Program-made: the position numbers and the translations under genes
In this document: one piece after another, positions 6,002 through 22,398 of the stretch
How the letters are laid out: each line of letters begins with the position of its first letter
Numbering within the stretch: the stretch's first letter is position 1
From: Candidatus Bathyarchaeota archaeon
GTDB lineage: Archaea; Thermoproteota; Bathyarchaeia; Bathyarchaeales; Bathycorpusculaceae
Length of the DNA: 64,000 bases
Direction of reading: 5' to 3'
NCBI GenBank assembly: GCA_963717465.1
Contig: OY970340.1
Span: forward strand, 2,176,001-2,240,000
The notes under the pieces: generated by a model
What the model was told of the DNA's origin: nothing
Seen by the model: only the letters and a program-made list of their open reading frames with translations
The model's database searches: none

Positions 6002-6074
6002 CCGGCTTAGATTCAGCCTAAGGTTTGTCGGAGAACTTGGAAAGACGGCAAACCTTAGGTGTGAGTCTGGTTGG
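6002..6074. ncRNA. Long intergenic hairpin, candidate small RNA
   Basis: CCTAAGGTTTGTCG pairs with CGGCAAACCTTAGG and extends via AGATTCA/TGAGTCT; abuts the operator-like palindrome at 6068-6086. Confidence 0.4.
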
Positions 6075-6086
6075 ATTATCCAACCA
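6068..6086. promoter_or_regulatory. Palindromic operator-like site, copy 1 (TGGTTGGATTATCCAACCA)
   Basis: Perfect 9-1-9 inverted repeat; same motif at 12373 and 18718; minus-strand BRE/TATA (GTAAAG-TTTATAT) at ~6105-6117. Confidence 0.7.
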
Positions 6087-6188
6087 TTATTTGATAATTA
6101 ATCCATATAAACTTTACTAGGCAATAAAAATTAGTGACTTTCGCCTGCTGAAAAGCAAACGAGCAGTAAAATAAAAAAAAATCAAGTG

Positions 6189-6782
6189 TTAACTTTGGTT
6201 TCTTCTATTCCTGCTTAGCCATTCTTTAAAACTGCCTGTATACATTCCCCAAGCTTTGAGTTTTGGTGAGATAGCTCTAATCAAAGCTGGAGAGATTATG
6301 CATACTATTGGCAAGTTGATTAGAAATGTGCTTATGAAAGCTAATTCAGCCCATTCTGAAGTTGGAAATAATACTGGCAAAATTGTATATTGCCAAACGA
6401 TATAGGCTAATCCAACAAAGAGCGTCAAAGCATATACGCCTGCGAGGTAAGCGAGATTTCGTTTTTTTCCTTTCTCACCTGCATTTCGTGGCATGAGAAC
6501 CCAATTCATCATGTAGATTAGAAAAGCTACGACTGCTTCAAAGATGCCGAGTGGACCTAGACCTTCCGCGAAGGCTCCGCCTATAAACGCTCCAATCATG
6601 CTGCCTATTAGCCCGTTCCACCCGAACCATAGAGGGAAAACTCCTAGTAGAACTATTGGGAGATAGAGCAATGCGAATTTAGAAATATTAATTGCTGATG
6701 ACACAAAAAACAAGGCAGCGTAGATTGCTGCAGACATTGCCATTATGGACACTGATTTAGCTGAAATTGTTTTTCTATTCAT
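6189..6782 (-). CDS. QueT-like / ECF S-component membrane protein
   Basis: N-terminal AMSAAIYAAL, FGWNGLIGSMIGAFIG, 5-6 hydrophobic segments; 16 bp downstream of cobT. Confidence 0.6.
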   Translation of the reverse strand: MNRKTISAKSVSIMAMSAAIYAALFFVSSAINISKFALLYLPIVLLGVFPLWFGWNGLIGSMIGAFIGGAFAEGLGPLGIFEAVVAFLIYMMNWVLMPRNAGEKGKKRNLAYLAGVYALTLFVGLAYIVWQYTILPVLFPTSEWAELAFISTFLINLPIVCIISPALIRAISPKLKAWGMYTGSFKEWLSRNRRNQS

Positions 6783-6798
6783 TTTCCCTTTCCTCCAT

Positions 6799-7899
6799 TC
6801 AATTTTGCTGTTTTGAATTTACTAGGTGAGCGTAATTTGTTTCAATCTCCGACAGCAACATGTCTGATGTAATTTTGCCTTTTGACTTTGCCATAGCAGC
6901 TATGCTTGTCCCTCCAACGCCAACTCCTTCTTTTACAACGCCAGCTTCGTACGCTTGTAAACCCTTGAATTTTGATTTACTAAAATTCAAGTTTGCTACG
7001 AGAATTGGGGCGTCAGCGATTTGAGTAACTATTCCTTTAAGATCAGATGACTTGTCTTCAATAATCCATCTTGTAGTTCCAATTGCTACGTTCTTCAAAA
7101 CCTCATTGTCTAAAGCTTTGATAATGGATAAAACTGCAGCCATTTGGGTTCCTCCAGCCATTAAAACAGGAACATTCTCTGCCGCACCTAAAACCAACCC
7201 TGCGAATGCGGGCATCATTGGGTCGCCTAAACACGAAACTGCCTTAAGAGGTTCCTTTTTAAAAGCGCCTGGTCCGATGTTAAGTGTTTTGAGGCCTTGT
7301 TCAACTGCTTTGGTTTTGAGGTCATGAGGGTTCCCAGGCATGCTGCTGCTGACTTTTCCTTTTGCGTCTATGCCCATTGCAAGCAGAACGCCGAGTGCAG
7401 TTGTGGTTCCTCCGGGAATGCTTTCTCCTATGACGAGGTAATCTGCGGTTTGTGATAGCATTTTTCCAGCGAGTTGAGCTCTTTGCAGGACTTTTTCTGC
7501 GTTTTCTACGGCTTTTCCAGTTCGTATGTCTCCACCGTGTTTTCCGCCTAAATCAACGAATGGAACTTGAGGCAACACACGTAACCCTGCATTAACTGGC
7601 AATGCTGGTATGTCTGCCAGCTTCAGCGCTGACATGGTAACTAATGCGGGAGTAGGAATGCCGTCAGGTGTAACAGGTACGCCGTTGATGCATTTGCATC
7701 GACCAAGAAGTAATAGTTCTACATCTGCAGGTGGCGTATAATCGGTTATTTCCGGGCATGCTCCTGCGGCTGATATGCCAGGGATTTTAGCTGTCTCCGT
7801 TGTACCAATCGTGCATAAAAAAAGCGGTTTTTTTCCAGTTATTTTTTTAAGGAAACTTTTGCTTTTAACTTCGTTGTTAACTATAGTTATATCTTGCAT
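6799..7899 (-). CDS. cobT: Archaeal nicotinate-nucleotide:dimethylbenzimidazole phosphoribosyltransferase
   Basis: IPGISAAG, PTPAL, GESIPGGTTTA, LAGGTQM-like motif, VKEGVG. Confidence 0.9.
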   Translation of the reverse strand: MQDITIVNNEVKSKSFLKKITGKKPLFLCTIGTTETAKIPGISAAGACPEITDYTPPADVELLLLGRCKCINGVPVTPDGIPTPALVTMSALKLADIPALPVNAGLRVLPQVPFVDLGGKHGGDIRTGKAVENAEKVLQRAQLAGKMLSQTADYLVIGESIPGGTTTALGVLLAMGIDAKGKVSSSMPGNPHDLKTKAVEQGLKTLNIGPGAFKKEPLKAVSCLGDPMMPAFAGLVLGAAENVPVLMAGGTQMAAVLSIIKALDNEVLKNVAIGTTRWIIEDKSSDLKGIVTQIADAPILVANLNFSKSKFKGLQAYEAGVVKEGVGVGGTSIAAMAKSKGKITSDMLLSEIETNYAHLVNSKQQN

Positions 7900-7990
7900 T
7901 TTCTCAATCTCGGAGACTTTTTGCTTTCAAAGCAAGAATGGTAAATAATATAAGCCTTTTCTGCCGCATTACAAATGTAGTGTGTAAACT

Positions 7991-8920
7991 TTGAAGGTCA
8001 CTAATATCAGATTTTCCGAAAAGTTGCTATCCGACGCTGACAAATTGGCGAAAAAGCATGGGCTCAACCGCTCTGAAATCATACGCCAAGCGCTAACTGT
8101 CTACTTGCACCTAGTCGAAAACATGGGAACAATGCTTAGACCCGTGGCCTTTCAAGTTAAGCCTTCACAGATTAATTATATGCGCAAAGGAGACGTCTCA
8201 ATTTTAAGAATTCCCACGGGGCACGCAATCGTCGTTGGGTCAACTTCTTCCGGAGCTGTAGGGCCCAAATCAATGGATAAGATAAAAGTTGACGGAAGAG
8301 TACTTGGTAAGTTTCTCGCCAGGGTTGGCTTAATGGACGTCGCTGCAACGGGTGCCTTTCCAATTATGCTTTCTGCGACCTTAGGTGTAGAGAAAGAGCC
8401 TACTGGACGCGAAATTCTGGAGGGCATGCGACGTGAGGCTGCTGTACTTGGGCTTGAACCAAACCAAGTCTTAATGGAAAACACTGAGGAGAATTTTGAA
8501 ACAGTGCAAACAGGAGTTGGCTTAACCGTGGTTGGCTTTGCAAATGAAGAAGAGCTTCGAGTGGGGAAAAGTATGCCTGGAGACTTATTGGTTGCTATTG
8601 GCAAGCCTAAGGTGGGCAACGAAGTCATTTCTTCTGAAGCTAAAGGTGAAATAGCTGACTTAAAAAGCGTAATTTGGCTTAGCCAAAAAAAATATATTCA
8701 TGACATTGTGTCTGTTGGCGCTTTTGGAATCGCTTATGAAGCTAGAATGATGGCTCAAGCAGTTGGACGACAGTTGAAACTATCGGAGAACATGGTGGTG
8801 GATATAGAGAAATCCGCTGGACCTGCAACAGTGGTTCTCGTCACCGTAAACTCGGAAAAGTTTGAGGAGTTAGCTTCAGTTATCAAAAAACCTGTGGCTA
8901 TAATTGGAGAAATATTATAA
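7991..8920 (+). CDS. Ribbon-helix-helix domain fused to alpha-ribazole kinase (CblS)/PurM-like domain
   Basis: Residues 1-45 are CopG-like (TNIRFSEKLL..ADKLAKKHGLNRSEIIRQAL); the rest has SGAVGPK..D, EPTG, TEENF.TVQTGVGLTVVG, GKPKVG.EV and KSAGPAT, typical of CblS-like proteins. Confidence 0.75.
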   Translation: MKVTNIRFSEKLLSDADKLAKKHGLNRSEIIRQALTVYLHLVENMGTMLRPVAFQVKPSQINYMRKGDVSILRIPTGHAIVVGSTSSGAVGPKSMDKIKVDGRVLGKFLARVGLMDVAATGAFPIMLSATLGVEKEPTGREILEGMRREAAVLGLEPNQVLMENTEENFETVQTGVGLTVVGFANEEELRVGKSMPGDLLVAIGKPKVGNEVISSEAKGEIADLKSVIWLSQKKYIHDIVSVGAFGIAYEARMMAQAVGRQLKLSENMVVDIEKSAGPATVVLVTVNSEKFEELASVIKKPVAIIGEIL

Positions 8921-8944
8921 TTAAAAGTGCATATCTCAGAGAAA

Positions 8945-9907
8945 TTAAACGATCAGTGCTATAAGAGCTAAAATTGAAAAAACTACAATCACGCCAAACA
9001 AGATTGCAGTTACACACATTATCCTCCATGCCCTAGTAATGTCCCCGGTTGAAATCTTCGTTCCATCTCCAAGGGCATAATTGTTTTCCTTTTCAAGTTG
9101 AGTATTTAACGCTCCCGCCATAGCTGAAATTGTCCATCCAGCATTCGGGCTTGCAGTTTTGTTTTTATCTCTTTTTAGAATTCGCCAAGAATTCCGCCAA
9201 TTCGCACGCAGCAATCCAGCTGAAGCAACCATTAAAACCGCAGTAATCCTTGTTGGGACATAATTGGTTATTGTGTCCATTTTTGCGCTGAACCATCCGA
9301 TATTCACGTTTACTTGGTCTTTGTATCCTACCATTGAATCTAAAGTGCTGATGGCTCTAAAAGCGAAAGCGCCTGGAACTCCAAATAAAGCAAAGAAGAA
9401 AAACGGTGAGGTTACTCCATCTGTTGTGCTTTCTGCTATGGACTCAACTGCCGCGGAAATAATGTGCCGTTCATCTAACTCGTTTGGGTTGCGGCGTACA
9501 ATGAAAGGCAGCCACTCTCTAGCCCTGTTTAGATCTTTTTCCTTCAGAGCTTTTTCAATCGGATAAGTGTAATGACGCATGCCTTTGAGTGAAAATGTAG
9601 CTTTAAACATCAAGGCACCTAAAATTATGTATATCAGCGTGCCCCAAACAGGAATTTGCAGAACTGCCCACAAAATGACTCCTGCTGGAACTGCGAAAAG
9701 TACAATCAGCCCAACGCATAAAAAAACACCATTAATTTTTTCAACCTGTGGATTTGAGTTTTTGATTTTTGGCTTAAAAAAAGATATAACTTTTCCCATC
9801 CAAACCGTAGGATGTACGCGATCGGGAATCTCGCCGAAAATCAAATCAATCAAGAGCGCTAAAACAAAAATTAACAATGAATCCAAAAAAAATGCAGTAT
9901 CAAACAT
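8945..9907 (-). CDS. cbiB: Adenosylcobinamide-phosphate synthase
   Basis: DLIFGE..HPTVWMG, AAVESIAES..DG, STLDSMVGY, SPNAGW. Confidence 0.93.
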   Translation of the reverse strand: MFDTAFFLDSLLIFVLALLIDLIFGEIPDRVHPTVWMGKVISFFKPKIKNSNPQVEKINGVFLCVGLIVLFAVPAGVILWAVLQIPVWGTLIYIILGALMFKATFSLKGMRHYTYPIEKALKEKDLNRAREWLPFIVRRNPNELDERHIISAAVESIAESTTDGVTSPFFFFALFGVPGAFAFRAISTLDSMVGYKDQVNVNIGWFSAKMDTITNYVPTRITAVLMVASAGLLRANWRNSWRILKRDKNKTASPNAGWTISAMAGALNTQLEKENNYALGDGTKISTGDITRAWRIMCVTAILFGVIVVFSILALIALIV

Positions 9908-9926
9908 ATTTCGGCTTCAAACCTGT

Positions 9927-11052
9927 CTATCCATAGACTTCCTTTAGTGTCTCAAGCAGTTTTTTATTTTCGTCTCTTGTTTTAATTGCAATCCTGACAA
10001 AGTATTCATCTAAACCTGTAAAAGAGTTGCAGTCTCGAATTAGAACTCCCTGCTTAAGCATTTTTTCCTTAAGCTGCGCAGCTGTCCAACCTGATTTTCT
10101 GATATCGATAAATAGGAAGTTTGCGTCAGGCGGATAAATCTTGAAAGCCTTAAATTGTTTAAGCTCTGCTAGGAGAAATTTTTTTTCTTCTTTTATTAGT
10201 TTCAAAGTTTTCGTTAGGTGTTCTTCGTCTTTGAGAGCTGTAATTGCTGCTGATTGAGCTAAACAGTTAGCGTTCCAAGGAATCTTATTGCTTAACATAT
10301 AGCTGACAAGCTCTTCACAAGCAATTCCGTAGCCGACTCTCAAGCCAGTTAAACCATAGATTTTCGTGAAGGACTTTAAGATGAAAAGGTTAGGGTATTC
10401 TTCTATTTTATTTATGAACGTCAGCTTTTCTTGGTTTTCGACAAATTCTAAGAAATCTTCATCAAGAAAAACTAATGTACTATTTTCCAGTGCAGTTTGA
10501 ATAATAAACTCTAAGTCTTTTGTTGAAGTTAAATTTCCTGTTGGGTTGTTCGGGTTGCATAAAAAGAAGATTTTGGCTCCAGCAATATCTTTGGTGAAAG
10601 TTGCTTGTTCAACTTGAAAATTTTTATTTAACAGTAAGAATTTTACTTGCTCTCCCGTTCTTCTTATTGCGCCTTCGTACTCGCTAAAGCTGGGTGCTGG
10701 AATAACCGCGAAATCGTCTTTTTTCATGAAAATGTCCGCAAATAGGTAAATTAGCTCAGTTGAGCCGTTTCCAATTACGATGTTTTCCTTGCTAAGTGAA
10801 TAGTGATTTGCGATTGCTTCCCTGAGCTGGTTTGAGTTAGAATCTGGATATTTTGGGATCTGCCAAAAATTATCTAGTTATTGCTTCAAGAGCTTTGGGT
10901 GAGGGACCGATGGGATTTACGCTTGAACTAAAGTCTAAAATGTCAACAGGCTTTAAACCAGTCTGTTTGGCTGCAGCCAAGATCTGACCGCCATGAACGC
11001 ACGGCTTAAAATTCCTCAAATTGTCTTTAACTAAGCTTTCGATTGGCTTCAT
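9927..11052 (-). CDS. cobD: L-threonine-O-3-phosphate decarboxylase (frameshift near 10870)
   Basis: HGG..., LDFSSSVNPIG in the first piece; CNPNNPTG, DEDF, SFTKIYGLTGLRVGY and LIRDC in the second. Confidence 0.85.
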
Positions 11053-11074
11053 TATTTTTCCTCGTGATATTAAA

Positions 11075-12288
11075 TCAAATTAAGTTTAAGAGTATCGGCA
11101 TGACGTTTTTGCCTTGAATTCGTTTTAAGCCGCCCTTATACATTGCTTTTTCATTAAACTCAACGACTTCGTCTCTTACTATCTCATTGCTTGCTATTGA
11201 GATAGGCACTGGGTCGCCTGTGTGTTTTCTGGTTTTGCAGGATGTAACATGATCAGGCATTAAGGCTATAGCGACTTCTTCAAGGTTCACGTTATCCAGT
11301 ATTGTTCCCACCATTGTGTCAATTTTTTTGATTATACCTATTTTTCCTTGAATATCTCCGTTGTGGCTGGCTTCGTCAGGTGCTTCAACATGTACAAAAA
11401 CAAAATCATCCGTTCGAAGCGCGGCTAATGCTGCTTTAGCCTTTGCATTAGTGTCTGTATCAAGCTCGCCTGTGGCTCCAGGAACATCTACAACAGACAT
11501 GCCTGTTAATTTGCCGATGCCCTTAATGACGCTAACTGCAGCGACACATGATGCCTTCAACTTGTATTTTTCATAGAATGATTGAAGGACTGGCGTTTTG
11601 CTTCCACTCCAAGGAATCACAACGTTAGCAGGAAGTTTTCCTTTTGCCTTGCGCTGTAAGGTTAACAGGATTATTTTCAAGCAACGTATTAGAGGTTTTC
11701 ACAAACTCATTTAGCACTTCAGCGGTTTTTTTCGCTTCACTCGAATCGTCTAAAGGTTTGATCAACCCAATTGTACTGCCCACTTTAGGCAGTGTAACCG
11801 CAGACACATTGGCTGAGAGTTTTTCACCCCTAAGTACTAAAGCGCCTTTAAACCCCAATGTCTGCTTGAAAATAACTTCAACATCCGAATTTTTCTTTAA
11901 TTTTATATTCGCAACCTCTCGCTCTAAGTGCTTTAGCTTCCTCTCGAATGCGTCCTGCCCTTTCATCAACTAACATCAATTCTTTATTTACTGTTGCAAA
12001 GTTGCATCTGAACGCTGTGTCTCCGGTTTCAAGCTTTATTCCTGCTCCTGTAGCCTCAAAAGGTCCTCTTCCAGTGCAATTTTGTCCCTCGTAACCCAGA
12101 ATAGATAAGTTTGCAGCGTCGCTTCCAGGAGCAACTCCTAATGCTACTGAGTCAAGTAAACCGGAAATACCGTTGGCCGCTAACCTATTCATATTTCTTG
12201 GTTTGGCTGCTTGAAGCGGTGTTTTGTAATCCAGTTCCTTTAACGGTCGATCTGCCATTCCATCGCCGACTATGACGATTAGGCGCAT
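11075..12288 (-). CDS. apgM: Cofactor-independent phosphoglycerate mutase-like protein (ApgM family; two frameshifts)
   Basis: [42 protein letters not shown], DHxT...HTGDPVP across three overlapping ORFs. Confidence 0.8.
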
Positions 12289-12372
12289 ATTTTTTTCTCC
12301 TGGCTGCTTTGCTTTGCCGTAAGTCTATTATTTAGGTGTTGTTAGTGGGGTTTGCAAATCATATAAACATTT

Positions 12373-12389
12373 GGATGGATAGTCCAACC
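12373..12389. promoter_or_regulatory. Palindromic operator-like site, copy 2 (GGATGGATAGTCCAACC)
   Basis: 2 mismatches to GGTTGGATAATCCAACC; lies between TATA-like boxes of the divergent apgM-cobD-cbiB and cbiZ units. Confidence 0.65.
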
Positions 12390-12441
12390 GGAAATATTAT
12401 TATAGAACCAACTAATAAAACAGCGCAAAGGTGTAGTCATC

Positions 12442-13452
12442 ATGAAGCAAGTTGATTTGTTAGGCGTTAAAGGCAAAATCGTAATCAAAAATAACGTGCT
12501 ATTGATAACCAGTCAAACAGACATGACAACTGTTAGCTCCGCATTCTACAATGGTGGTTTAACAAAAACTAGAAACATCCTCAATATTCAAGTGTCCGGA
12601 TACAACCAAATAGAACTTCACAACGACCCGTTCATACCGATAAAACATGCCCAAAAAAAACTACAGCTAAACGATGATTTTGTCGCAATGCTCACTATTG
12701 TAGATATTAACAAGATGGCGTTTGTTTCTGCTAAAGCAGGCGAAATATCTATAAACGTGATTGCAACAGGAGGCTGCACTCACCCTGAATCCGCAGGAGA
12801 AAAAATTGATTCAACAGTAACCGCAGGAACAATAAACACTTTCGTCTTAGTGGATGGCAACCCTTCAGGCGGCGCTTTGATGAACTTATACTTAACAGCA
12901 ACTGAAGCCAAGGTTGCCGCTGTGCAAGATTTGGATGTTCGAAGCCGATACACCGGCGTCGCAGCCACAGGAACAGTAACAGACAGTTTGCTTGTGGCGG
13001 CTTCTGGTAAAGGTGAACGTTTCGATTTTGGCAGTCCCGCCTCGCCAGTAGGTCAAATAGTCGCACAGTGCGCCCGCAAAGCCGTTCGGCAAGCAATCCT
13101 AAACTACGAGTCTGAAAAATACGGCGGCTCCATCGCGACTCGATTAAAGGATAGGCAGTTGACAGTGGAACGGTTAGCTGGCGAGATTTCAAAAATTGAA
13201 GGCTTTCACAAAAACAAAAAGGCACTTGCTGCTGAAATTGAGAAAATATTGCAGGACGAATCATTAGCCATTTACTTGCTTGCAGCAGCAAAACTAGATG
13301 AAGACTGCGAAAAACAACTTATTAAATCCCAACTTTCCACTGCTTTTGGAAGTTTTTCACCAGCGAATCCAGTAAGCTTTAATAGCGATTCAGCAAATCT
13401 GCCGCAATTCACTAAACACGCCCTACTGAACTTACTTTTAAACAGAAAATAA
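12442..13452 (+). CDS. cbiZ: Adenosylcobinamide amidohydrolase with C-terminal extension
   Basis: SSAFYNGG, AMLT, GTINT, TATEAK, ATGTVTD. Confidence 0.85.
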   Translation: MKQVDLLGVKGKIVIKNNVLLITSQTDMTTVSSAFYNGGLTKTRNILNIQVSGYNQIELHNDPFIPIKHAQKKLQLNDDFVAMLTIVDINKMAFVSAKAGEISINVIATGGCTHPESAGEKIDSTVTAGTINTFVLVDGNPSGGALMNLYLTATEAKVAAVQDLDVRSRYTGVAATGTVTDSLLVAASGKGERFDFGSPASPVGQIVAQCARKAVRQAILNYESEKYGGSIATRLKDRQLTVERLAGEISKIEGFHKNKKALAAEIEKILQDESLAIYLLAAAKLDEDCEKQLIKSQLSTAFGSFSPANPVSFNSDSANLPQFTKHALLNLLLNRK

Positions 13453-13566
13453 AGGCAATTTCTATTTTTGTTTAGCGCGATTTATTGTGTCAAAGTTTAG
13501 TTGAAGGTATCGCCGCTTAAATAGCATCATCGGTTAATTTTGAATAAAAGTTGTGCAGCAATTTTC

Positions 13567-14316
13567 TTATACACTGCCCTTTTTCAGAGTTACAATTGAT
13601 GCTGAGAAGAAAAAAATTCCGTAGCCTATGAGCACTAAGAAGGACAACCATGGGAAAGACTGGTTCAACGCCGCCGCTCGCAAACACAGACTTGAATGTG
13701 TAAGCGGCAATAGATAAAGTGCAATCTTTAAGGCTTCAGGCACTTGATTCAAAGAGAAAAAAGTGCCACATAGAAAAGTCATGGGTAAAATAACTAAGTT
13801 GCTGAAATTCCATATTTTCTCATGCTCATTGAAGACTAAAGCGATAAGCACTCCAAATAACGCAAAGACAAAACAAGAGATAAGCAGTGTTAATATGAAA
13901 ATTGGGCTAACAGTTAGCGTCGGCAAAAGGACAAGCCCCACAAGCAGTATAGCAACCGAGCTGATTAAGCCACGAACCACGCCTATTAACGCCTTGCCCC
14001 AGACAATCGAATAAAAACTAACTGGAGACATTAAGAAATTGTCGAAGCTCTTGTAAAATAGTTTATCCATCTGAAGCTTTGATGAAGAACCGTTGTAGCT
14101 GGATGAAAATGCTGTCAAGGCAACAATCCCTGGAATGACAAACGCCAGGTAGCTTTCGCCTTCAATGTTGACGGCGTTTCCTAAGCCATAACCGAAAGCT
14201 ATTATGTATAAAAGAGGCTGCACAAGGCTAATGAGTACCGTTGAACGCCAATGATGACGCAAGTTCTGCAAATCTACCCAAAAAATGGAATAAGTGTCTT
14301 TTAGTGAGTCAAGCAT
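13567..14316 (-). CDS. ABC-2 type transporter permease
   Basis: QPLLYIIAFGYGLG, YLAFVIPGI, PMTFLCGTFF, LPLTH. Confidence 0.85.
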   Translation of the reverse strand: MLDSLKDTYSIFWVDLQNLRHHWRSTVLISLVQPLLYIIAFGYGLGNAVNIEGESYLAFVIPGIVALTAFSSSYNGSSSKLQMDKLFYKSFDNFLMSPVSFYSIVWGKALIGVVRGLISSVAILLVGLVLLPTLTVSPIFILTLLISCFVFALFGVLIALVFNEHEKIWNFSNLVILPMTFLCGTFFSLNQVPEALKIALYLLPLTHSSLCLRAAALNQSFPWLSFLVLIGYGIFFFSASIVTLKKGSV

Positions 14317-15182
14317 TATGCGTCACTGACCTTCTGCCCTGTGCTTTCTACAAAAACATCTTCTAGGTTAGTATCGCGGATAGTAATTGTCTTAATGTTT
14401 GGCGATAAATTTTGAACAAACGTGCTAGCTGCTGCTCGATCAGCAAAGAATTGGTAGTGAGTCTCTTTGTTATCTACTAGTGTCTCAACAGCGATTGGTC
14501 CCAAGTTCTTACGCAATTCCATAGGTGTGTCAACAGCGATCAAGCTACCCTTATGCATAATGCCGACACGTTTGCAGAGTGCCTCGGCCTCCTCAATATA
14601 GTGAGTAGTGAGAAAAATTGTTGTCCCATCCGAGTTTAATCGACGAACTAAATCCCAGAGGCGACGTCGCGCTTGAGCATCCAGACCTACTGTTGGCTCA
14701 TCCAGAAACAATAGTTTTGGTTTATGCAAAAGGCTGCAGACTATTGCGGCCCTCTTCTTCATTCCGCCCGAAAGAGTGTCTACCATTTTATCAGCACACT
14801 CTCCGAGCTCGACATAATCTATCAACTCGGCTATGCGTGCCTTGCGTTCTGATGAGCTCAGACGATGGAGTCTAGCGTTAAACTCCAAGTTTTCTCTAAC
14901 TGTCAAATCCCAATCTAAAGTAAGATGCTGTTGCACTACACCGATAATCCGCTTAACTTTATCTGGCTCTCTTGTTACGTCAAAACCTCCCACAGATGCA
15001 TAACCCGAAGTCGCGTGAGTTAAAGTAGTTAAGACACGGATGGTTGTGGTTTTTCCTGCTCCATTAGGTCCTAAAAAACCAAAAATTTCTCCACTTTGAA
15101 CTTTCAAATCGAGGTCGCGGATAGCTTTAGTGTTTCCGTAAGTCTTATTCAGTTTTTCAGTTACGATAGTTCCTTCAATCAA
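14316..15182 (-). CDS. ABC transporter ATPase (DrrA/NodI-like)
   Basis: GPNGAGKTT, LSGGMK, LDEPTVGLD, TTHYIEEAE. Confidence 0.9.
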   Translation of the reverse strand: MIEGTIVTEKLNKTYGNTKAIRDLDLKVQSGEIFGFLGPNGAGKTTTIRVLTTLTHATSGYASVGGFDVTREPDKVKRIIGVVQQHLTLDWDLTVRENLEFNARLHRLSSSERKARIAELIDYVELGECADKMVDTLSGGMKKRAAIVCSLLHKPKLLFLDEPTVGLDAQARRRLWDLVRRLNSDGTTIFLTTHYIEEAEALCKRVGIMHKGSLIAVDTPMELRKNLGPIAVETLVDNKETHYQFFADRAAASTFVQNLSPNIKTITIRDTNLEDVFVESTGQKVSDA

Positions 15183-15204
15183 CGAAATCCGCCTTTAGTT
15201 TTTG

Positions 15205-16525
15205 CTAAGCAGTTTTCTTAGATTTTAAGTGATCGACGACGCTTTGAGGGACCTCTCCGGACAGTTTGGACGTTTGAACGTGGATATCAAGCTTGGATAA
15301 AAGTTCATTTTGAGTTTTTACGAAGATTGCTCCCATTTTTTTTAGTTCGTCTAAGCATGCTTTTGCTTGTCCTTTAGTGAAGTCTCGGCTTTCTATGGGC
15401 ACTTGGTCTAATACTATTACATTAACTCCTTTTTGGAGAGCTTCTTTGGCTGCTTGCAAGTTCTCCAAGTTGCCATAGCCGAATGGAACAGAGGAAATGA
15501 CTGTAAAGTTAGCTTTTTTAATCATTTCCAAATTTATTTTCATTGATTTGTCGGTTATGGGTGAAAATGGGGCTTCACTAGCTACGGGTATATTGAGATA
15601 TTGTGCTGTTTCATAGTCAGTGTCTAAGACGTTAAGAACTCCAGCAGTAACCAAGTAGCCTTCGTTTTGAAAGATTTTCATGAGTTCAGCTCCCGTTCCT
15701 GCGCCACAAATCAAGTGAATGGAGCAGTTTTTGGGTGCAGGAGGCTTGGTGACTGACATGAGGTTAACGTATAATGAGCCTGTAACCGAGTTTTTCTTAA
15801 CTATGGCCTCGACATTGAACACGTTTTTTATGTTCTCGTTGGTTATAACTTGCTCTATAGTTCCTGCAGCATACACCTTGCCGCTTTTAAGAAGCAAAGC
15901 GTAGTTGCAGTAGCGCGCAGCCATATTCAGGTCATGGATAACTGCCAGTACCATAAGTTCCTCTTTTACGCAAAGGCTTTTCATCAAATCCATAATCTCA
16001 AGTTGATTAACTATGTCTAAATGTGTCAATGGTTCATCAAGGAGCATAATTCTTGGCTCCTGCGCTAGCGCCTGTAGCGATAACAACTCGCTGCTTTTCA
16101 CCGCCGCTTAACTCGTTTATGGGTCTTTGAGATAGATGCCATGTATTTGTGAGGTTCATGGCTTTTTTGGCAATTTCGAAATCTTTAGCGCTTTCCATCT
16201 CAAACCTGTTTAAGTGGGGGTTTCGACCCATTAGAACAATATCGAGCGCGCTAAAGCTGAATCCTATGCTGCTTTCTTGGGGAACAACCGCAACGTGTTT
16301 GGCGACATCGATACTTTTCATTAGGTAAACGTCATTGTTGTCGAGCGTTATAGCGCCCTTGTGCGGTTTGAGAGTTCTGCTGATGCTCTTAAATAAAGTG
16401 CTTTTACCAGAACCATTTGGTCCGAGGATTCCGATGAAATCTCCTTTTTTTACGGTTAGGGTGACGCCTTCCAAAACCTTAGTGGAGCCGTAATGGCATT
16501 CGACGCCTTCAACATTCAGCAGCAA
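15205..16525 (-). CDS. btuD: Corrinoid ABC importer ATPase with C-terminal extension (frameshift near 16075)
   Basis: GPNGSGKST, LSGGEKQRV, then ALAQEP..LLDEP..HLD and HDLNMAARY in the shifted frame. Confidence 0.85.
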
Positions 16526-16538
16526 AGTTTTAGCCTTC

Positions 16539-17618
16539 CTAAAGTGAGTAAGTGGTTTTCTTCCTTCTAAGCAGGTAGATGAAGAAAGGCGTTCCCAGCA
16601 AGGCAGTTATTACTCCAACTGGCAATTCTGCAGCACCCGTAGCTACCCGAGCAATAGCGTCACAGCATATCAAAAAGATTGCGCCTACAATTGTTGAGGC
16701 TGGAAGTAGGATGCGGTGATCTGGCCCGATTATGAGTCGGGTCATATGAGGAACTATTAAGCCTACAAAACCGATGATTCCGCTGATCGATACCGCTGCT
16801 GCAGTCATCAGAGATCCTAAAATTAGTAAAATTTGTCGCACTCTTTCCGTGTTAACGCCTAATTGTTGAGCCGTATCATCGCCTAACGCAAGCAAGTTGA
16901 GGTCGCGAGCAAAAAAATACGATATTGAAATACCTATTACAAGGAATGGCAAAACTTCCCAAACATTTAACCAACTCATGGCGCTAAAACCACCTGCAAG
17001 CCAAGCAACTATTCCAGTAAGAGCTTGCCCTGACCGCAACTCCATGAGTGTTTCAATTGCTAACAAGAAAATGTTGACTACGATCCCTGAAAGCAATAGA
17101 GTTGTTACTGGAACCCTGGAGCCAACTCTTGAAATGGAGTAGACCACCAAAATCGTAGCCATCGACACAACGAAAGCAAAGATTTGGTAAATGCTGGGAC
17201 CAAACAATGAAACAAGAGAACTGAAATACAGGACGGCAGCGATAAAGCCTACTGAAGCGCCTGCTGAAGCGCCGAGCAAATATGAGTCAGCCATTGGATT
17301 CTTGAAGACACCTTGATATAATACTCCTGCAGCAGCTAACGCTGCACCAACCAGTGCAGCTGCCATGATGCGTGGAAAGCGAATCAGCATAATTATTGCT
17401 GCATCGCTTGGCGATATTATTGTTGATGCAAGAGTTTTGCTTAAAAAAGGAATGTTTTTTCCGATTATGATCATAATTTCGGAAAATGAAATTGGCGCAT
17501 AACCAACGTTAAGGCAGATAACTATAGCTGCGATTAACGTAAGAATTAGAAATACGATTATTAATTTCCAGTGCGAAGAACGCTTATTGTATGACCCTTC
17601 GAGTTTATCTGCGCTCAT
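16539..17618 (-). CDS. btuC: Corrinoid ABC importer permease (FecCD family)
   Basis: IRFPR, FKNPMAD, A.QLGVN, GIIGFVGLIVPH, ELPVGVITA..G.PFF. Confidence 0.9.
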   Translation of the reverse strand: MSADKLEGSYNKRSSHWKLIIVFLILTLIAAIVICLNVGYAPISFSEIMIIIGKNIPFLSKTLASTIISPSDAAIIMLIRFPRIMAAALVGAALAAAGVLYQGVFKNPMADSYLLGASAGASVGFIAAVLYFSSLVSLFGPSIYQIFAFVVSMATILVVYSISRVGSRVPVTTLLLSGIVVNIFLLAIETLMELRSGQALTGIVAWLAGGFSAMSWLNVWEVLPFLVIGISISYFFARDLNLLALGDDTAQQLGVNTERVRQILLILGSLMTAAAVSISGIIGFVGLIVPHMTRLIIGPDHRILLPASTIVGAIFLICCDAIARVATGAAELPVGVITALLGTPFFIYLLRRKKTTYSL

Positions 17619-17705
17619 TCTTTAGCTCCAGTCATGTAGACGGGAAGCTTTCTTTGAGACATTACAATTCTTCCTAAAATAGCCTCTGACTAGAAATAAA
17701 AATAT

Positions 17706-18701
17706 TTAGGATGTTGAATTGAAAAGCTGCGGATACAAGCAAGCTGCGAGATCTTGAATTAATATGCCGATTCTTGGTCCTGGTTCACTGAAAAGGTCTT
17801 CATTAACAACGTATATTTGATTATTTTGCAAGGCACTTATTGTATTCCACCCTGTCCTTGCTTGAACATCAGCTGTCGTTACACCTAAATCATCTAGTAT
17901 GATGACATTGGGATTAAGCGTAATTATAGACTCCTGATCTACGGTAGGCCATGGGTCTGTGACATTAGCGAAAATATTAGTTCCTCCCGCCTGATGGATT
18001 GCATCGCTTATCCAAGTGGTTCCACCTACGCTTATGTAGCCTGTTGTGCTGCTCCAGACTTCAAAGTAAACGTTAACTGGTGTTGTAATATTTGCGTCGG
18101 CAATTTTTGTTGATATATTTGTTATTGTGCTGCTTATGTTGGTATCAAGTGATGCTGCTTGCGCCTGAGCTCCTGTTGCTCTGCCTACCAGGTCTATGTC
18201 TTGTTCTATGCCAGTCACTATGGTTGGGTTGAGTACTATTACTTTGTACCCGTCATCTCTTAGTGTTGCAATGCTTTGAGCGTCACATTGACTATCCGCT
18301 ATGATTAAGTCGGGAAGAGCAGAAGCAACGGCTTCCAAATTGGGTGTCCCATAGGCCCCATCAAACGTCATGTTGCCAGCTACAACCCAAGCGGTGAAAT
18401 TGTAGGGGTAATCTTCGCTTACGACATCAGGAGAATTTAACGCGCCTGTCACGGCTACTACCTTGTCGCCTACGCCTATAGCAAAACATATTTGTGTGGC
18501 ACTTGGCGCTAAGGAGACAATTCTTTGAGGTGTCGAAGTTAGGTTGGTTACGTATCCGTAGTCGTCTACTACTGAGATTTGAGCATTCTGCGATTGAAGG
18601 TTGTTGATTTGTGAAGAAAAACTGAGGTATATGAACAGTGAAGAAACGATGGCTATTATAGTTATAATTGCGGCTATGTAAGTTCCTGTTTTGTTACTCA
18701 T
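17706..18701 (-). CDS. btuF: Corrinoid ABC importer substrate-binding protein (likely start MSNK at 18701)
   Basis: N-terminal TM, PQRIVSLAPSAT, AGGTNIF, PGPRI; the ORF-track start at 18734 falls inside the operator palindrome. Confidence 0.85.
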   Translation of the reverse strand: MSNKTGTYIAAIITIIAIVSSLFIYLSFSSQINNLQSQNAQISVVDDYGYVTNLTSTPQRIVSLAPSATQICFAIGVGDKVVAVTGALNSPDVVSEDYPYNFTAWVVAGNMTFDGAYGTPNLEAVASALPDLIIADSQCDAQSIATLRDDGYKVIVLNPTIVTGIEQDIDLVGRATGAQAQAASLDTNISSTITNISTKIADANITTPVNVYFEVWSSTTGYISVGGTTWISDAIHQAGGTNIFANVTDPWPTVDQESIITLNPNVIILDDLGVTTADVQARTGWNTISALQNNQIYVVNEDLFSEPGPRIGILIQDLAACLYPQLFNSTS

Positions 18702-18717
18702 TTTTTGATCATCCTGC

Positions 18718-18738
18718 TTGGTTGGATAATCCAACCAA
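18718..18738. promoter_or_regulatory. Palindromic operator-like site, copy 3 (TTGGTTGGATAATCCAACCAA)
   Basis: Perfect 10-1-10 inverted repeat, directly downstream of the minus-strand TATA (TTTAAATA, 18740-18747) of btuF. Confidence 0.75.
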
Positions 18739-18824
18739 ATATTTAAAACTTACGACACGATTAAACTAAAAATAAAAAAGACGAGTGAAAAAGAATAAGC
18801 TGAATAAGTACAGGTGAAACGTGT

Positions 18825-19551
18825 ATGGATATAGAAAAAGTTGCAGTTTCATGGAGTGGCGGCAAAGACGGTTGTTTTGCTTGCTACAAAGCCATGAAGG
18901 AAGGCTTCCAAGTTTGTAACTTGTTAACTATGATGAAAGATGAATTTACGTCAAGTTTCCATTTAATTCGCTCTGACCTGCTTAGATGCCCAGGCAGCAG
19001 CTTTCGGAATTCCCATAATTAAAAAGAAGACTACGCTTGAAGGGTACGATGAAGATTTTAAAGCCGCTCTAAAACAATTAAAAGAGTTGGAGTAGAAGCC
19101 TTGGTTACTGGAGACATATATGAAGTAAGCGGACACGAGACAGGCTGGTTGGAACGAATCTGCAGCGAAGTTGGTTTGAAAACTTGGAAGCCGCTATGGA
19201 TGGGTGACACAAAAAAAATTTTCTGAGGATTATTTGAAGGCTGGCTTTAAAGCGATTGTAGTTAGAACAAAATTGGATGTGCTTAGAGCCAGTTGGCTGG
19301 GCAGGCAATTGAATGAAGAATTTCTCAAAGATATAATTGAGCTTGGAAATGTGGATCCGTGCGGAGAAAACGGTGAATACCATACGCTTGTTATCGACGG
19401 GCCAATATTCAATAGAAGCATTGAAATTGTTGAAACTAAGAAGCATAAGCTAGAAAGCGGTTATGGATTCCTGGAGATAAAACAGTTCAAAGTAACCCAA
19501 AAGCATGAGAGCCAAAAACGTCTAAAATCAGAAAATTCATTTGCTCATTAA
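18825..19551 (+). CDS. DUF71 / diphthine-ammonia ligase-like PP-loop ATPase (several frameshifts)
   Basis: SWSGGKD PP-loop, LVTGDI, DPCGENGEYHTLVIDGPIF. Confidence 0.8.
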
Positions 19552-19585
19552 AACCACGAACTAATGTAAAATAAGTGAGATTGTC

Positions 19586-20342
19586 TTGGTAGTTAAGCAA
19601 TTAAAAAACCTTCTATCTTTTCTTAACCGTCTTTCCAGTATCAATGGATAATAACTTTCTGACAGACTGCGCCAACTACATGTTCGCTTTTCCGTTAGTC
19701 GGCGCATTAATCGGTTTATTGGCTGGAGTATTCGGTTGGGCGCTAAGCTTCTTTCTTCCAACCTTAGTAGTTGGAACATTAATTCTAGCGTTAATACTGT
19801 TAATTACGGGGGTTCACCATACAGATGGCTTATTAGATTTTGGTGATGGCCTTATGGCTCATGGTTCTCCTGAGCATAAACTTGAGGTTATGCATGATCG
19901 TTTTACAGGCGCAGGAGGCATAGCCTTAGGCGTTATGACTCTTCTGATTACTGCCGTCGCCTTTGGGCAATTAAAAAGTGACATAATCATTCAAGCTATA
20001 ATCGTTGCAGAGGTTTCAGCAAAGCTTTCGATGGTTGTCACGACTTGGGCTGGCAAACCCGTGCGTCAAGGGATGAACTCACCCTTCATGCAAGCAATGC
20101 ATGGAGGCAAGGGCAATTTGCGCTTGATTATCGCTTTAATAATTTCACTTGTATTCGCGTTTCTGCTACTTCATGCGGCTGGTTTATTCATCGTACTTGC
20201 TGCAATAATAACTAGTTTAGTTATGGTCGCAATAGCGCATAAGAATTTTAATGGGGTAACGGGTGATGTTTTAGGTGCTACTAACGATCTTTCAAGAATG
20301 GTTGCAATCGTTGTTTTATTGGCGGTGATTAGTTGGGCGTGA
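19586..20342 (+). CDS. cobS: Cobalamin synthase (start likely 19586 with a frameshift near 19625)
   Basis: SFLT..P, FPLVG, TGVHHTDGLLDFGDG, MHD...GAGG, GVTGDVLGA. Confidence 0.9.
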
Positions 20343-20950
20343 CAGCGCTTGTTATGGCTGGAGGCAAGGGCTCACGTTTAAAAATTGCTCAGGAAAAACC
20401 GTTGATAAAAGTATGCGGTAAACCAGTTATCGATTATGTCCTCATGGCTTTGCTGAGCGCAAAGAAAGTTGATTCGATTATTGTGGCAGTTAGCAATAAT
20501 ACGCCCAAAACTGGGGAATTAATGGCTAATTTCCCCGTTAAAGTTATCCAAACACCCGGAAAAAATACTGTTTTTGATATGGGATACGCCGTCGAGCAGC
20601 TTAAGCTTGGAGTCGTCTTGGTCATTGCTGCTGACCTTCCACTGATAACTGGAAAAACCTTGGATGGCATAATTGATTATTATGAGCATTGCGGTAAACC
20701 TGCCTTGAGTGTTATCGTCTCAGCAGAAACTAAAGAACGGTTGGGAATGAGTATAGAACATGCATACAAAATAGGAGATAGACAGGTTGTCCCCGCCGGG
20801 ATTAATATCATTAATGGGCATAAAAGAATTGGCGATGAGTGGCTTGAACAAGAAGATTATCTGTTAGATATAGAACAAGTTGCCGTCAATATTAACACTC
20901 TCGAAGAATTAAGAGCTGCCAAACGCCTAATGGAGAGCGCAATTACTTGA
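20333..20950 (+). CDS. cobY: Adenosylcobinamide-phosphate guanylyltransferase
   Basis: ALVMAGGKGSRL..EKPL, ADLP, PAGINI, NINT; overlaps cobS. Confidence 0.88.
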   Translation: MGVTALVMAGGKGSRLKIAQEKPLIKVCGKPVIDYVLMALLSAKKVDSIIVAVSNNTPKTGELMANFPVKVIQTPGKNTVFDMGYAVEQLKLGVVLVIAADLPLITGKTLDGIIDYYEHCGKPALSVIVSAETKERLGMSIEHAYKIGDRQVVPAGINIINGHKRIGDEWLEQEDYLLDIEQVAVNINTLEELRAAKRLMESAIT

Positions 20951-21000
20951 CATTTTGTTGTGACATTTTGGTGTTAATGGGTATATGGTAAGCTGATACC

Positions 21001-22398
21001 ATGAACACTCCAAGGATATTAATCGCAGGCATGCATAGCGGTGTTGGAAAAACCACGGTTTCGTTAGGTTTAATGGGAGCTGTCAAAGAATTGGGGTTTA
21101 GGGTCCAAGGCTTCAAAGTCGGCCCAGACTATATTGACCCGAGTTATCACAATGTAGTTACTGGCGGAGCCTCGGAAAACCTGGATTCCTGGATGATACC
21201 GCACGACCAGATCATTGAATTATTCAATCGGGCAGCTTCCCACGCAGACATAGCGGTAATTGAAGGGGTTATGGGTCTATACGACGGCGTAAACGGTCTA
21301 GATGAATCAGGAAGCACAGCTGAAATCGCTAAAATATTAAAATGCCCAGTGATTTTGGTTATTGACTCACATGCATTGGCTCGAACCGCTGGAGCACTGG
21401 TTTTAGGCTTCAAAAATTTTGATAAAAAAGTAAATTTTGCCGGCGTTATCGTTAATAGAGTCGCAAGCCAAACCCATGCATTATGGTGCAAGCAAGCCAT
21501 CGAATCATCTACAGGGATAAAAGTTATTGGCTCATTGCCAGTTAATTCCGAATTGAAACTTCAGGAAAGACATTTAGGATTGATTCCCACTGTAGAAACC
21601 AAAACATTCAATCCAATATTAGCAAAGATCATGCGATTCGTGAAAAATAACATAAATATTGATGCAGTTATAGAAATTGCAAGATCCGCTAAACACCAGC
21701 CAAAAACCGCAAACCCAGTTTATCCGAAATTAAACATGCCTAAGAGAGTCGCTATAGGCGTAGCTTTCGACGAAGCCTTCAATTTTTATTATCCAAGCAA
21801 CCTGTCGCTTCTTGAAGTATATGGAGCGGAAATTAAGCATTTTAGCCCTATTCACGACCCAGAGTTACCAAACCACGTGAACGGATTGTACATTGGCGGT
21901 GGCTTTCCAGAGATGCTTCCAAAACAGTTAGAAGATAACCAAAAAATGCAAAATGCAATTAGAAAAGCCGCAGACATTGGAATGCCAATTTATGCTGAAT
22001 GCGGTGGTTTAATGTACCTAACAGACTCAATAGCCGATTTTGAAGGAAACACATTTCCTATGGTTGGCATATTGCATGGCAAAACTCTGATGACAAGCAA
22101 GACATTGCTTAACTATACTATTTCAAAGACATTCAAAGATAACATTTTAACCGCTGAAGGCTGCCTTTTAAGAGGTCATGAATTTCACTGCTCCAAAATT
22201 ATTGATATTTCAAGTGATGCACAATTTGCTTATCGCATGCAACAGGGTGAAGGTATAGTCAGAAAACAGGATGGCTGGATTAAAAACAATATTTTAGCCT
22301 CCTACATGCATATTCCTTTCATACAGTGTAGACAATTAGCATTTAATTTTGTAAATGCTTGCGAGAAACATAAAGATGAAAAGGCTTCAGCGACGTAA
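21001..22398 (+). CDS. cbiA: Cobyrinate a,c-diamide synthase
   Basis: SGVGKT, FKVGPDYIDP, EGVMGLYDG, ERHLGL, AFNFYY, YAECGG, GHEFH. Confidence 0.93.
   Translation: MNTPRILIAGMHSGVGKTTVSLGLMGAVKELGFRVQGFKVGPDYIDPSYHNVVTGGASENLDSWMIPHDQIIELFNRAASHADIAVIEGVMGLYDGVNGLDESGSTAEIAKILKCPVILVIDSHALARTAGALVLGFKNFDKKVNFAGVIVNRVASQTHALWCKQAIESSTGIKVIGSLPVNSELKLQERHLGLIPTVETKTFNPILAKIMRFVKNNINIDAVIEIARSAKHQPKTANPVYPKLNMPKRVAIGVAFDEAFNFYYPSNLSLLEVYGAEIKHFSPIHDPELPNHVNGLYIGGGFPEMLPKQLEDNQKMQNAIRKAADIGMPIYAECGGLMYLTDSIADFEGNTFPMVGILHGKTLMTSKTLLNYTISKTFKDNILTAEGCLLRGHEFHCSKIIDISSDAQFAYRMQQGEGIVRKQDGWIKNNILASYMHIPFIQCRQLAFNFVNACEKHKDEKASAT

Follow-up and report, generated by a model that had tools for sequence, protein, structure and literature searches.

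Probable operator of an archaeal cobamide regulon

A 17-base palindrome with the consensus GGWTGGATNATCCAWCC (W at two positions) occurs three times in a 64,000-nt stretch of a Candidatus Bathyarchaeota archaeon genome (GCA_963717465.1, contig OY970340.1, positions 2,176,001 to 2,240,000; hereafter the window). It is probably the operator of an archaeal cobamide regulon, read by a winged helix-turn-helix (wHTH) protein with a DUF4443 domain that would bind it when cobamide is plentiful. We refer to the home genome as G000 and to its contig as C1; one G000 protein has close homologs that bear a Bathyarchaeia label. The matches lie at 6069-6085 (copy 1, no mismatches), 12373-12389 (copy 2, two mismatches) and 18720-18736 (copy 3, no mismatches), and none is assigned a strand. 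A first-pass annotation of the window had reported perfect copies at 6068-6086 and 18718-18738, both of which are indeed perfect palindromes save for the centre base, and a two-mismatch copy at 12373-12389, which our pattern scan recovered. Shuffled windows held a mean of 0.03 matches, and 0 of 100 shuffles reached three. A fourth copy lies outside the window at C1:2867182. Scored with a position weight matrix (PWM) from 86 sites of other genomes, the four G000 copies range from 22.8 to 33.7 (32.2, 22.8 and 33.7 for copies 1, 2 and 3) and stand clear of the background genome-wide, the next-best site scoring 13.9 and the reversed-genome peak 14.5. Because the training sites were picked by their closeness to the consensus, these scores bear on the G000 copies, not on the consensus itself.

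As annotated earlier, two of the copies sit in divergent promoter regions, at 12373 between the apgM-like gene (minus strand) and cbiZ (plus), and at 18720 between btuF (minus) and DUF71 (plus). Copy 3 lies between the btuF start and its TATA box, TTTAAATA (18747-18740, minus strand), which stops 3 nt short of the site. An Rfam search at gathering threshold returned 0 matches in the window, in agreement with the previously noted absence of a cobalamin riboswitch. Overall, the palindrome has several sequence properties of an archaeal operator, namely enrichment far above chance, retention at orthologous or linked genes while the flanks diverge, and a fixed distance to the predicted TATA element. 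Corrinoid responsiveness is suggested by the content of the regulon.

Conservation and target genes

Phylogenetic footprinting revealed the palindrome (at most one mismatch) in 34 of 41 related genomes, with 76 sites compared with 5 matches for the reversed control. It is kept upstream of btuF and other cob genes and does not behave as a repeat, with 1-11 copies per genome and unrelated flanks. The 71 non-G000 sites that were inspected (one further site stands outside that listing) precede btuF (21), cobD-cbiB (12), the S component of an energy-coupling factor (ECF) transporter (9), DUF71-cobT (8), secreted or membrane proteins (9) and a ChlI-like chelatase operon (3), and 9 have no assigned target. 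The weaker copy 2 of the window corresponds to the orthologous site before cobD-cbiB in 12 relatives' loci. In the relatives, the gene facing cobD usually codes for a TP-methylase (Dph5-like by eye), so the conserved target of this divergent region is cobD-cbiB.

An exact-motif scan of GTDB gave at least 121 loci, of which 63 are archaeal and 58 bacterial, as judged from titles and genes. Among those listed, the archaeal sites precede ECF-type S components (36), btuF/btuC (10), mcrB (7), mtaBC (1) and a secreted protein (1), with 8 unassigned and several short loci assigned by eye. No btuF/btuC match was found in the 58 bacterial loci listed, which were queried with window proteins only. The S-component profile matches a single PDB sequence, 6FNP (E 3e-15), which is the cobalamin transporter ECF-CbrT (PMC5997447). 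The usual partner of the CbrT-like S component bears a DUF4430 domain, whose profile gave no match among PDB sequences.

Several other genes are found with the motif. Secreted alpha/alpha-toroid (prenyltransferase-like), cohesin/PKD and PQQ beta-propeller proteins (L185, L207, L054, L160, L170, L171) are candidate surface B12-binding proteins. A pair coding for a zinc alcohol dehydrogenase and a TrpD-like glycosyltransferase carries the motif in one Methanomassiliicoccales genome and in Methanosuratincola (L233:2003-4016, L243:846-3254), and is a candidate for a step in cobamide metabolism. One relative (G040:C1:20267, L149) carries a perfect site 255 nt ahead of purS, with purM on one side and purS-purL on the other, a possible tie to the supply of aminoimidazole ribotide for the lower ligand.

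Promoter geometry and the proposed mode of action

TATA elements were predicted with a simple home-made matrix and the sites were oriented by hand to their targets. The top-scoring TATA precedes the site in 43 of 43 ECF, 31 of 32 btuF and 8 of 8 DUF71-cobT promoters, usually by 7-15 nt as counted to the start of the site, and follows it in 13 of 13 cobD promoters (5-nt gap) and 7 of 7 mcrB promoters (9-nt gap). Of 81 Methanomassiliicoccales genomes, none has the control pattern, whereas 49 have the arrangement of site, 9 nt and TATA; in 30 such loci listed it precedes mcrB (22) or a corrinoid protein gene (6), with 2 unassigned. When mcrB promoters were chosen by protein score regardless of the motif (30 loci, 29 parsable), 19 had a site with at most two mismatches, 17 of these at exactly 9 nt, 2 had one with four mismatches and 8 had none, while the reversed control never came under five mismatches. 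The 9-nt spacing also recurs at an MtaA-type gene of Methanosuratincola; the fit of other methyltransferase sites in the same set is unclear. The position of the site 9 nt upstream of the mcrB TATA suggests activation. In the RbkR paper (PMC5397151), operators about 5 nt upstream of TATA are likewise read as activating, with experiment awaited there.

In the window, TATA elements can be read both ways in both divergent regions. The two-way element at 12360-12369 consists of TTTATATG on the minus strand, 5 nt beyond copy 2 toward apgM-cobD-cbiB, and TATAAACA on the plus strand, 3 nt before copy 2 toward cbiZ. A TTTAAA at 18742 (plus strand), 5 nt past copy 3, could serve DUF71-cobS-cobY-cbiA. 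The site is past the TATA for btuF and cbiZ, and 5 nt before it for DUF71-cobS-cobY-cbiA and apgM-cobD-cbiB.

From the motif, its conserved targets, its promoter geometry and its linkage to DUF4443 genes we infer the protein-DNA pairing, the ligand and the sign of control as follows. The DUF4443 protein would bind DNA when a cobamide or a precursor is abundant. Where the site lies between TATA and start (btuF, the CbrT-like ECF genes, DUF71-cobT and probably cbiZ), binding would block initiation and turn uptake off. Where it lies about 9 nt before the TATA (mcrB and corrinoid-protein genes of Methanomassiliicoccales, the MtaA-type gene of Methanosuratincola), it would probably activate corrinoid-consuming metabolism. 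At cobD-cbiB, with the site 5 nt before the TATA and over the B recognition element, either sign is possible. The repressor geometry proposed by the first-pass annotation hence applies to the uptake genes, with the site past the TATA, but not to cobD-cbiB and mcrB, where the site is upstream of it.

A DUF4443 protein as candidate reader

The DUF4443 protein of G000 is encoded outside the window (C1:941540-942178) and matches PF22167 (winged helix, 40.7 bits) and PF14544 (70.4 bits), both above cut-off. Of the 63 archaeal loci listed, 12 have a DUF4443 gene no more than 3 kb from the site (11 of the 40 with long flanks), often divergent from or downstream of an ECF-DUF4430 gene set. In three lineages the DUF4443 gene bears the motif at its own start or promoter. 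It is present in 36 of 41 relatives, including 32 of the 34 motif-positive ones, and the three motif-less members of the genus all lack it; 5 of 5 distant motif-positive genomes have it as well. In a phylum sample of 201 genomes, the motif was found in 75 of 167 DUF4443-positive and 4 of 34 DUF4443-negative genomes (12 of 201 for the control).

The predicted model of the G000 protein (mean predicted local distance difference test score, pLDDT, 94.3) matches PH0730 of Pyrococcus horikoshii (2P8T), MarR/CggR winged helices and the GAD domain of aspartyl-tRNA synthetase (AspRS). Against 2P8T, Foldseek gave E 1.5e-11 and VIA gave Z 20.2, with a root-mean-square deviation of 2.5 over 176 aligned residues at 27-28% identity. 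Residues G55, G57 and a GR motif of the winged helix are near-invariant in DUF4443, which fits the near-invariant site. The invariant and near-invariant columns contain no Cys or His, and Pfam scans of DUF4443 proteins did not find the DtxR family that the reader of a DtxR-type metal regulon would carry. A wHTH-DUF4443 protein is the likely reader of the palindrome.

In family f40, probably the ammonia oxidisers, 5 of 6 loci have DUF4443 and cbtA in divergent orientation, and a degenerate site (2-4 mismatches) lies upstream in 5 of 6. The strict motif is rare in this family; three of its genomes hold 22-29 matches at three mismatches versus 6-7 in controls. None of the other 14 DUF4443 loci examined alongside these six has the site, and three show the order ECF-DUF4430-DUF4443. 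A long DUF4443-DUF2111 form has the site over its own start in 3 of 3 Methanomassiliicoccales genomes, in two of which mcrB is some 7 kb away, and long and short paralogs occur together in all 3 genomes of this order that were checked. Near the mcr operon, the long wHTH-DUF4443-DUF2111 gene and an ABC ATPase gene (AtwA-like by eye) form a divergent pair (L225, L226, L227).

Several observations weigh against this assignment. Two relatives with sites, G010 (92% complete) and G021 (65%), have no DUF4443 match. DUF4443 is so common (167 of 201) that its co-occurrence with the motif is only moderately informative, and the related genomes in these counts are not independent. The motif (at most one mismatch) is absent from 92 of the 167 DUF4443-positive genomes, including nearly all of families f40, f47, f43 and f52, and even an excess at three mismatches is absent in one f47 and one f52 genome. 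In G000 itself the DUF4443 gene is not linked to the sites and none precedes it (best match, five mismatches), and two of the four sites head no gene. The C-terminal domain resembles the GAD domain of AspRS, and no B12-binding fold or B12 enzyme was among the matches listed in a whole-protein search. As for geometry, 10 of the 29 mcrB promoters have no good site, the TATA calls come from the simple matrix and hand orientation, and several of the elements are two-way.

Other possible readings

A different signal is the rival that we take most seriously, although it is rather unlikely: the operator and DUF4443 would pair as proposed, but the ligand would be cobalt, or the methyl-transfer or energy state, and the long DUF4443-DUF2111 paralog near mcr may sense a ligand of its own. 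The product of mcrB uses F430 and not B12, and the presence of mcrB among the targets fits such a signal, as do the linkage to cbtA, a predicted cobalt transporter, in f40 and the coexistence of long and short paralogs in 3 of 3 Methanomassiliicoccales genomes. However, the commonest targets are importers of intact corrinoids (CbrT-like, BtuF, DUF4430) and salvage enzymes, and the invariant and near-invariant DUF4443 columns lack Cys and His. It is still less probable that a cobamide operator is read by another regulator, e.g., a MarR-like/DUF7839 protein, DUF4443 being merely a member of the regulon. A site in the DUF4443 promoter is equally expected of a mere target, a MarR-like/DUF7839 gene adjoins 3 of 70 relatives' loci, and the motif occurs without DUF4443 in 4 genomes of the phylum sample and 2 relatives. 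Yet DUF4443 is the sole DNA-binding family that recurs beside the motif across several lineages, and its near-invariant winged-helix residues suit a near-invariant site.

Two further readings have very little probability. A ribbon-helix-helix (RHH)-CblS fusion (7991-8920), common in the genus and located among the three sites of the window, could read the palindrome and sense alpha-ribazole. But we rejected this candidate: none of the 121 motif loci listed holds the fusion gene; a search with the window protein as query did not find it in any of five distant genomes that have the motif; outside the genus it occurs in 1 of 16 genomes compared with 12 for the motif; G024 holds the fusion without the palindrome; and in 18 of 18 fusion promoters, which bear another palindrome, the best match has at least five mismatches. 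Just as improbable is that the palindrome acts in RNA, as a hairpin or riboswitch-like element, or that it is a small repeat or part of a mobile element. It can fold as a 7-bp hairpin, and two of the G000 copies, neither of which heads a gene, have a downstream hairpin in common, but Rfam gave no cobalamin match, the W positions vary independently and so break the pairing, and the 1-11 copies per genome have unrelated flanks. In addition, the palindrome is largely untranscribed, since at most promoters it sits between TATA and start or upstream of the TATA.

Returning to the cobamide operator read by DUF4443, a wider version of it is tentative, and we would not yet favor it. Here, throughout Thermoproteota and Thermoplasmatota, one ancient wHTH-DUF4443 corrinoid sensor with a near-invariant site would switch genes in both directions, repressing B12 uptake and directly activating the mcr operon and the corrinoid methyltransferases of methyl-reducing methanogens, thereby coupling methane formation to cobamide supply; in G000 it would also control two small hairpin RNAs.

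Comparison with known regulatory systems

Archaea often control vitamin pathways with protein regulators such as ThiR, and bacterial cobalamin riboswitch regulons target btuFCD, cbrT, cbtA and cob salvage genes. The kinds of targets of the palindrome are alike, but here the element is a DNA site at the promoter without an Rfam match, and it also appears to mark B12-consuming genes for activation. As with ThiR, the bacterial vitamin riboswitch would be replaced by a winged-helix protein of archaea and its palindromic operator. RbkR, the archaeal riboflavin regulator (PMC5397151), is a further such case. The present system differs from both in its protein family, motif and pathway, in a putative sensing domain that is GAD-like DUF4443, with no enzyme of the pathway among the matches listed, in showing both repressor- and activator-type positions, and in targets that reach mcr.

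The first-pass annotation called the regulator undescribed, which needs a caveat. PMC10746257 mentions a predicted cobalamin regulon of P. furiosus, "CblrR (unknown)", with a citation group that includes RegPrecise. It is likewise a protein-type archaeal cobalamin regulon, with its regulator listed as unknown; the palindrome motif may be partly known already. The DUF4443 protein of Pyrococcus horikoshii, PH0730, has the same two-domain fold as the G000 protein, and its structure (2P8T) was deposited under the label of a hypothetical protein. A literature search lacking most subscription journals and RegPrecise found no paper on DUF4443, DUF2111 or an archaeal CblR, nor, among the papers listed, on this palindrome. 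AmzR of Methanosarcina acetivorans (10.1101/2025.05.05.652248) is a ligand-binding regulator of methylotrophic methyltransferase genes, as is proposed for DUF4443, but differs in being a zipper-like PAS/GAF protein that senses methylamines, and the part of its text at hand names no DUF or cobalamin.

For archaeal B12-gene regulation without riboswitches, our analysis supplies a motif, a list of targets and a candidate protein whose family has a solved structure that lacks annotation (2P8T). The fixed activator-type spacing before mcrB suggests that the main operon for methane formation in Methanomassiliicoccales is under direct regulation through this site. By its position the palindrome also singles out some unannotated genes as probable cobamide genes, including the DUF4430 partners, the secreted beta-propeller and alpha/alpha-toroid proteins, DUF71 and the apgM-like enzyme.

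Genes of the window cluster

The earlier gene names stand on profile matches, with cobD, cobY and btuF under their NCBIfam cut-offs. On the minus strand, the cluster comprises a membrane protein with weak QueT/ECF S-like similarity (6189-6782; PF06177 E 0.003, under cut-off) downstream of the archaeal CobT phosphoribosyltransferase gene (6799-7899; TIGR00303 407.8 bits, cut-off 240), the apgM-like-cobD-cbiB operon (8945-12288), and btuF-btuC-btuD followed by an ABC-2 ATPase and permease (13567-18701, btuF ATG at 18701). On the plus strand are cbiZ, coding for adenosylcobinamide amidohydrolase (12442-13452; PF01955 E 1e-42), and DUF71-cobS-cobY-like-cbiA/cobB (18825-22398, DUF71 ATG at 18825). 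The apgM-like gene, cobD, btuD and DUF71 are split by frameshifts; frameshift-split regions were seen at 1751-2801, 9927-12288, 15205-16525 and 18825-19551 and are probably assembly indel errors. The apgM-like gene (11075-12288 in the window, directly before cobD; also L107, L242, L021), related to the TIGR02535 "proposed homoserine kinase", occurs in cob clusters and may supply threonine phosphate instead of PduX. The cbiA/cobB gene (21001-22398) is above the cobB cut-off and scores 538.7 bits with the model of the F430 enzyme CfbB (cut-off 560).

Orphan copies with hairpins

Copy 1 lies in a convergent intergenic region and is an orphan, with a TATA-like box TTTATATG on the minus strand (6104-6111), 18 nt upstream, and no downstream open reading frame (ORF). 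Just downstream of it on the minus strand is a hairpin (6010-6068; minimum free energy -21.2 kcal/mol, z -2.6). Copy 1, read on the minus strand, and the copy at C1:2867182 have a common layout of TATA, about 20 nt, site and then a hairpin with a shared arm, without an ORF; the hairpin of the second unit (C1:2867150-2867260, plus strand) has z -3.4. In 119 genus genomes there was no relative of the orphan hairpin with a site, 8 having the hairpin pattern with best sites of 4-8 mismatches, while 300 genomes of the class gave one match. Among 120 metagenome loci, 3 have a site with 2-3 mismatches and none has the hairpin. An Rfam e-value search around 6069 returned weak unrelated matches only. 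One apparent compensatory change was seen between the stems of the two hairpins (6010-6111 and C1:2867150-2867260). Possible explanations for these units are small RNAs under regulation and promoters left over from lost genes.

A probable second regulator in the cluster

The fusion gene at 7991-8920 (plus strand) joins an RHH domain (PF01402) to an AIRS part (PF00586), which resembles the alpha-ribazole kinase CblS. The fusion lacks one Asp that is present in 4 of 4 aligned stand-alone homologs, and a PDB sequence search with it gave no match. Its proposed operator is a palindrome of about GTAWTAC-N4-GTAWTAC at 7965-7984 (no strand), distinct from GGWTGGATNATCCAWCC. Fusion promoters come within four mismatches of this pattern in 15 of 20 cases, for the most part 26-36 nt ahead of the start. 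With the window copy excluded from training, it scores 16.2, the second-highest value in the genome; since the reversed genome scores as high, it is position and not score that carries the case for this operator. With the fusion and its distinct operator inside it, the cluster appears to be under two regulators. The fusion operator was also seen upstream of stand-alone ECF and CblS-like operons (L023, L024, L025), and it would mark a second regulon, probably one for the lower ligand.

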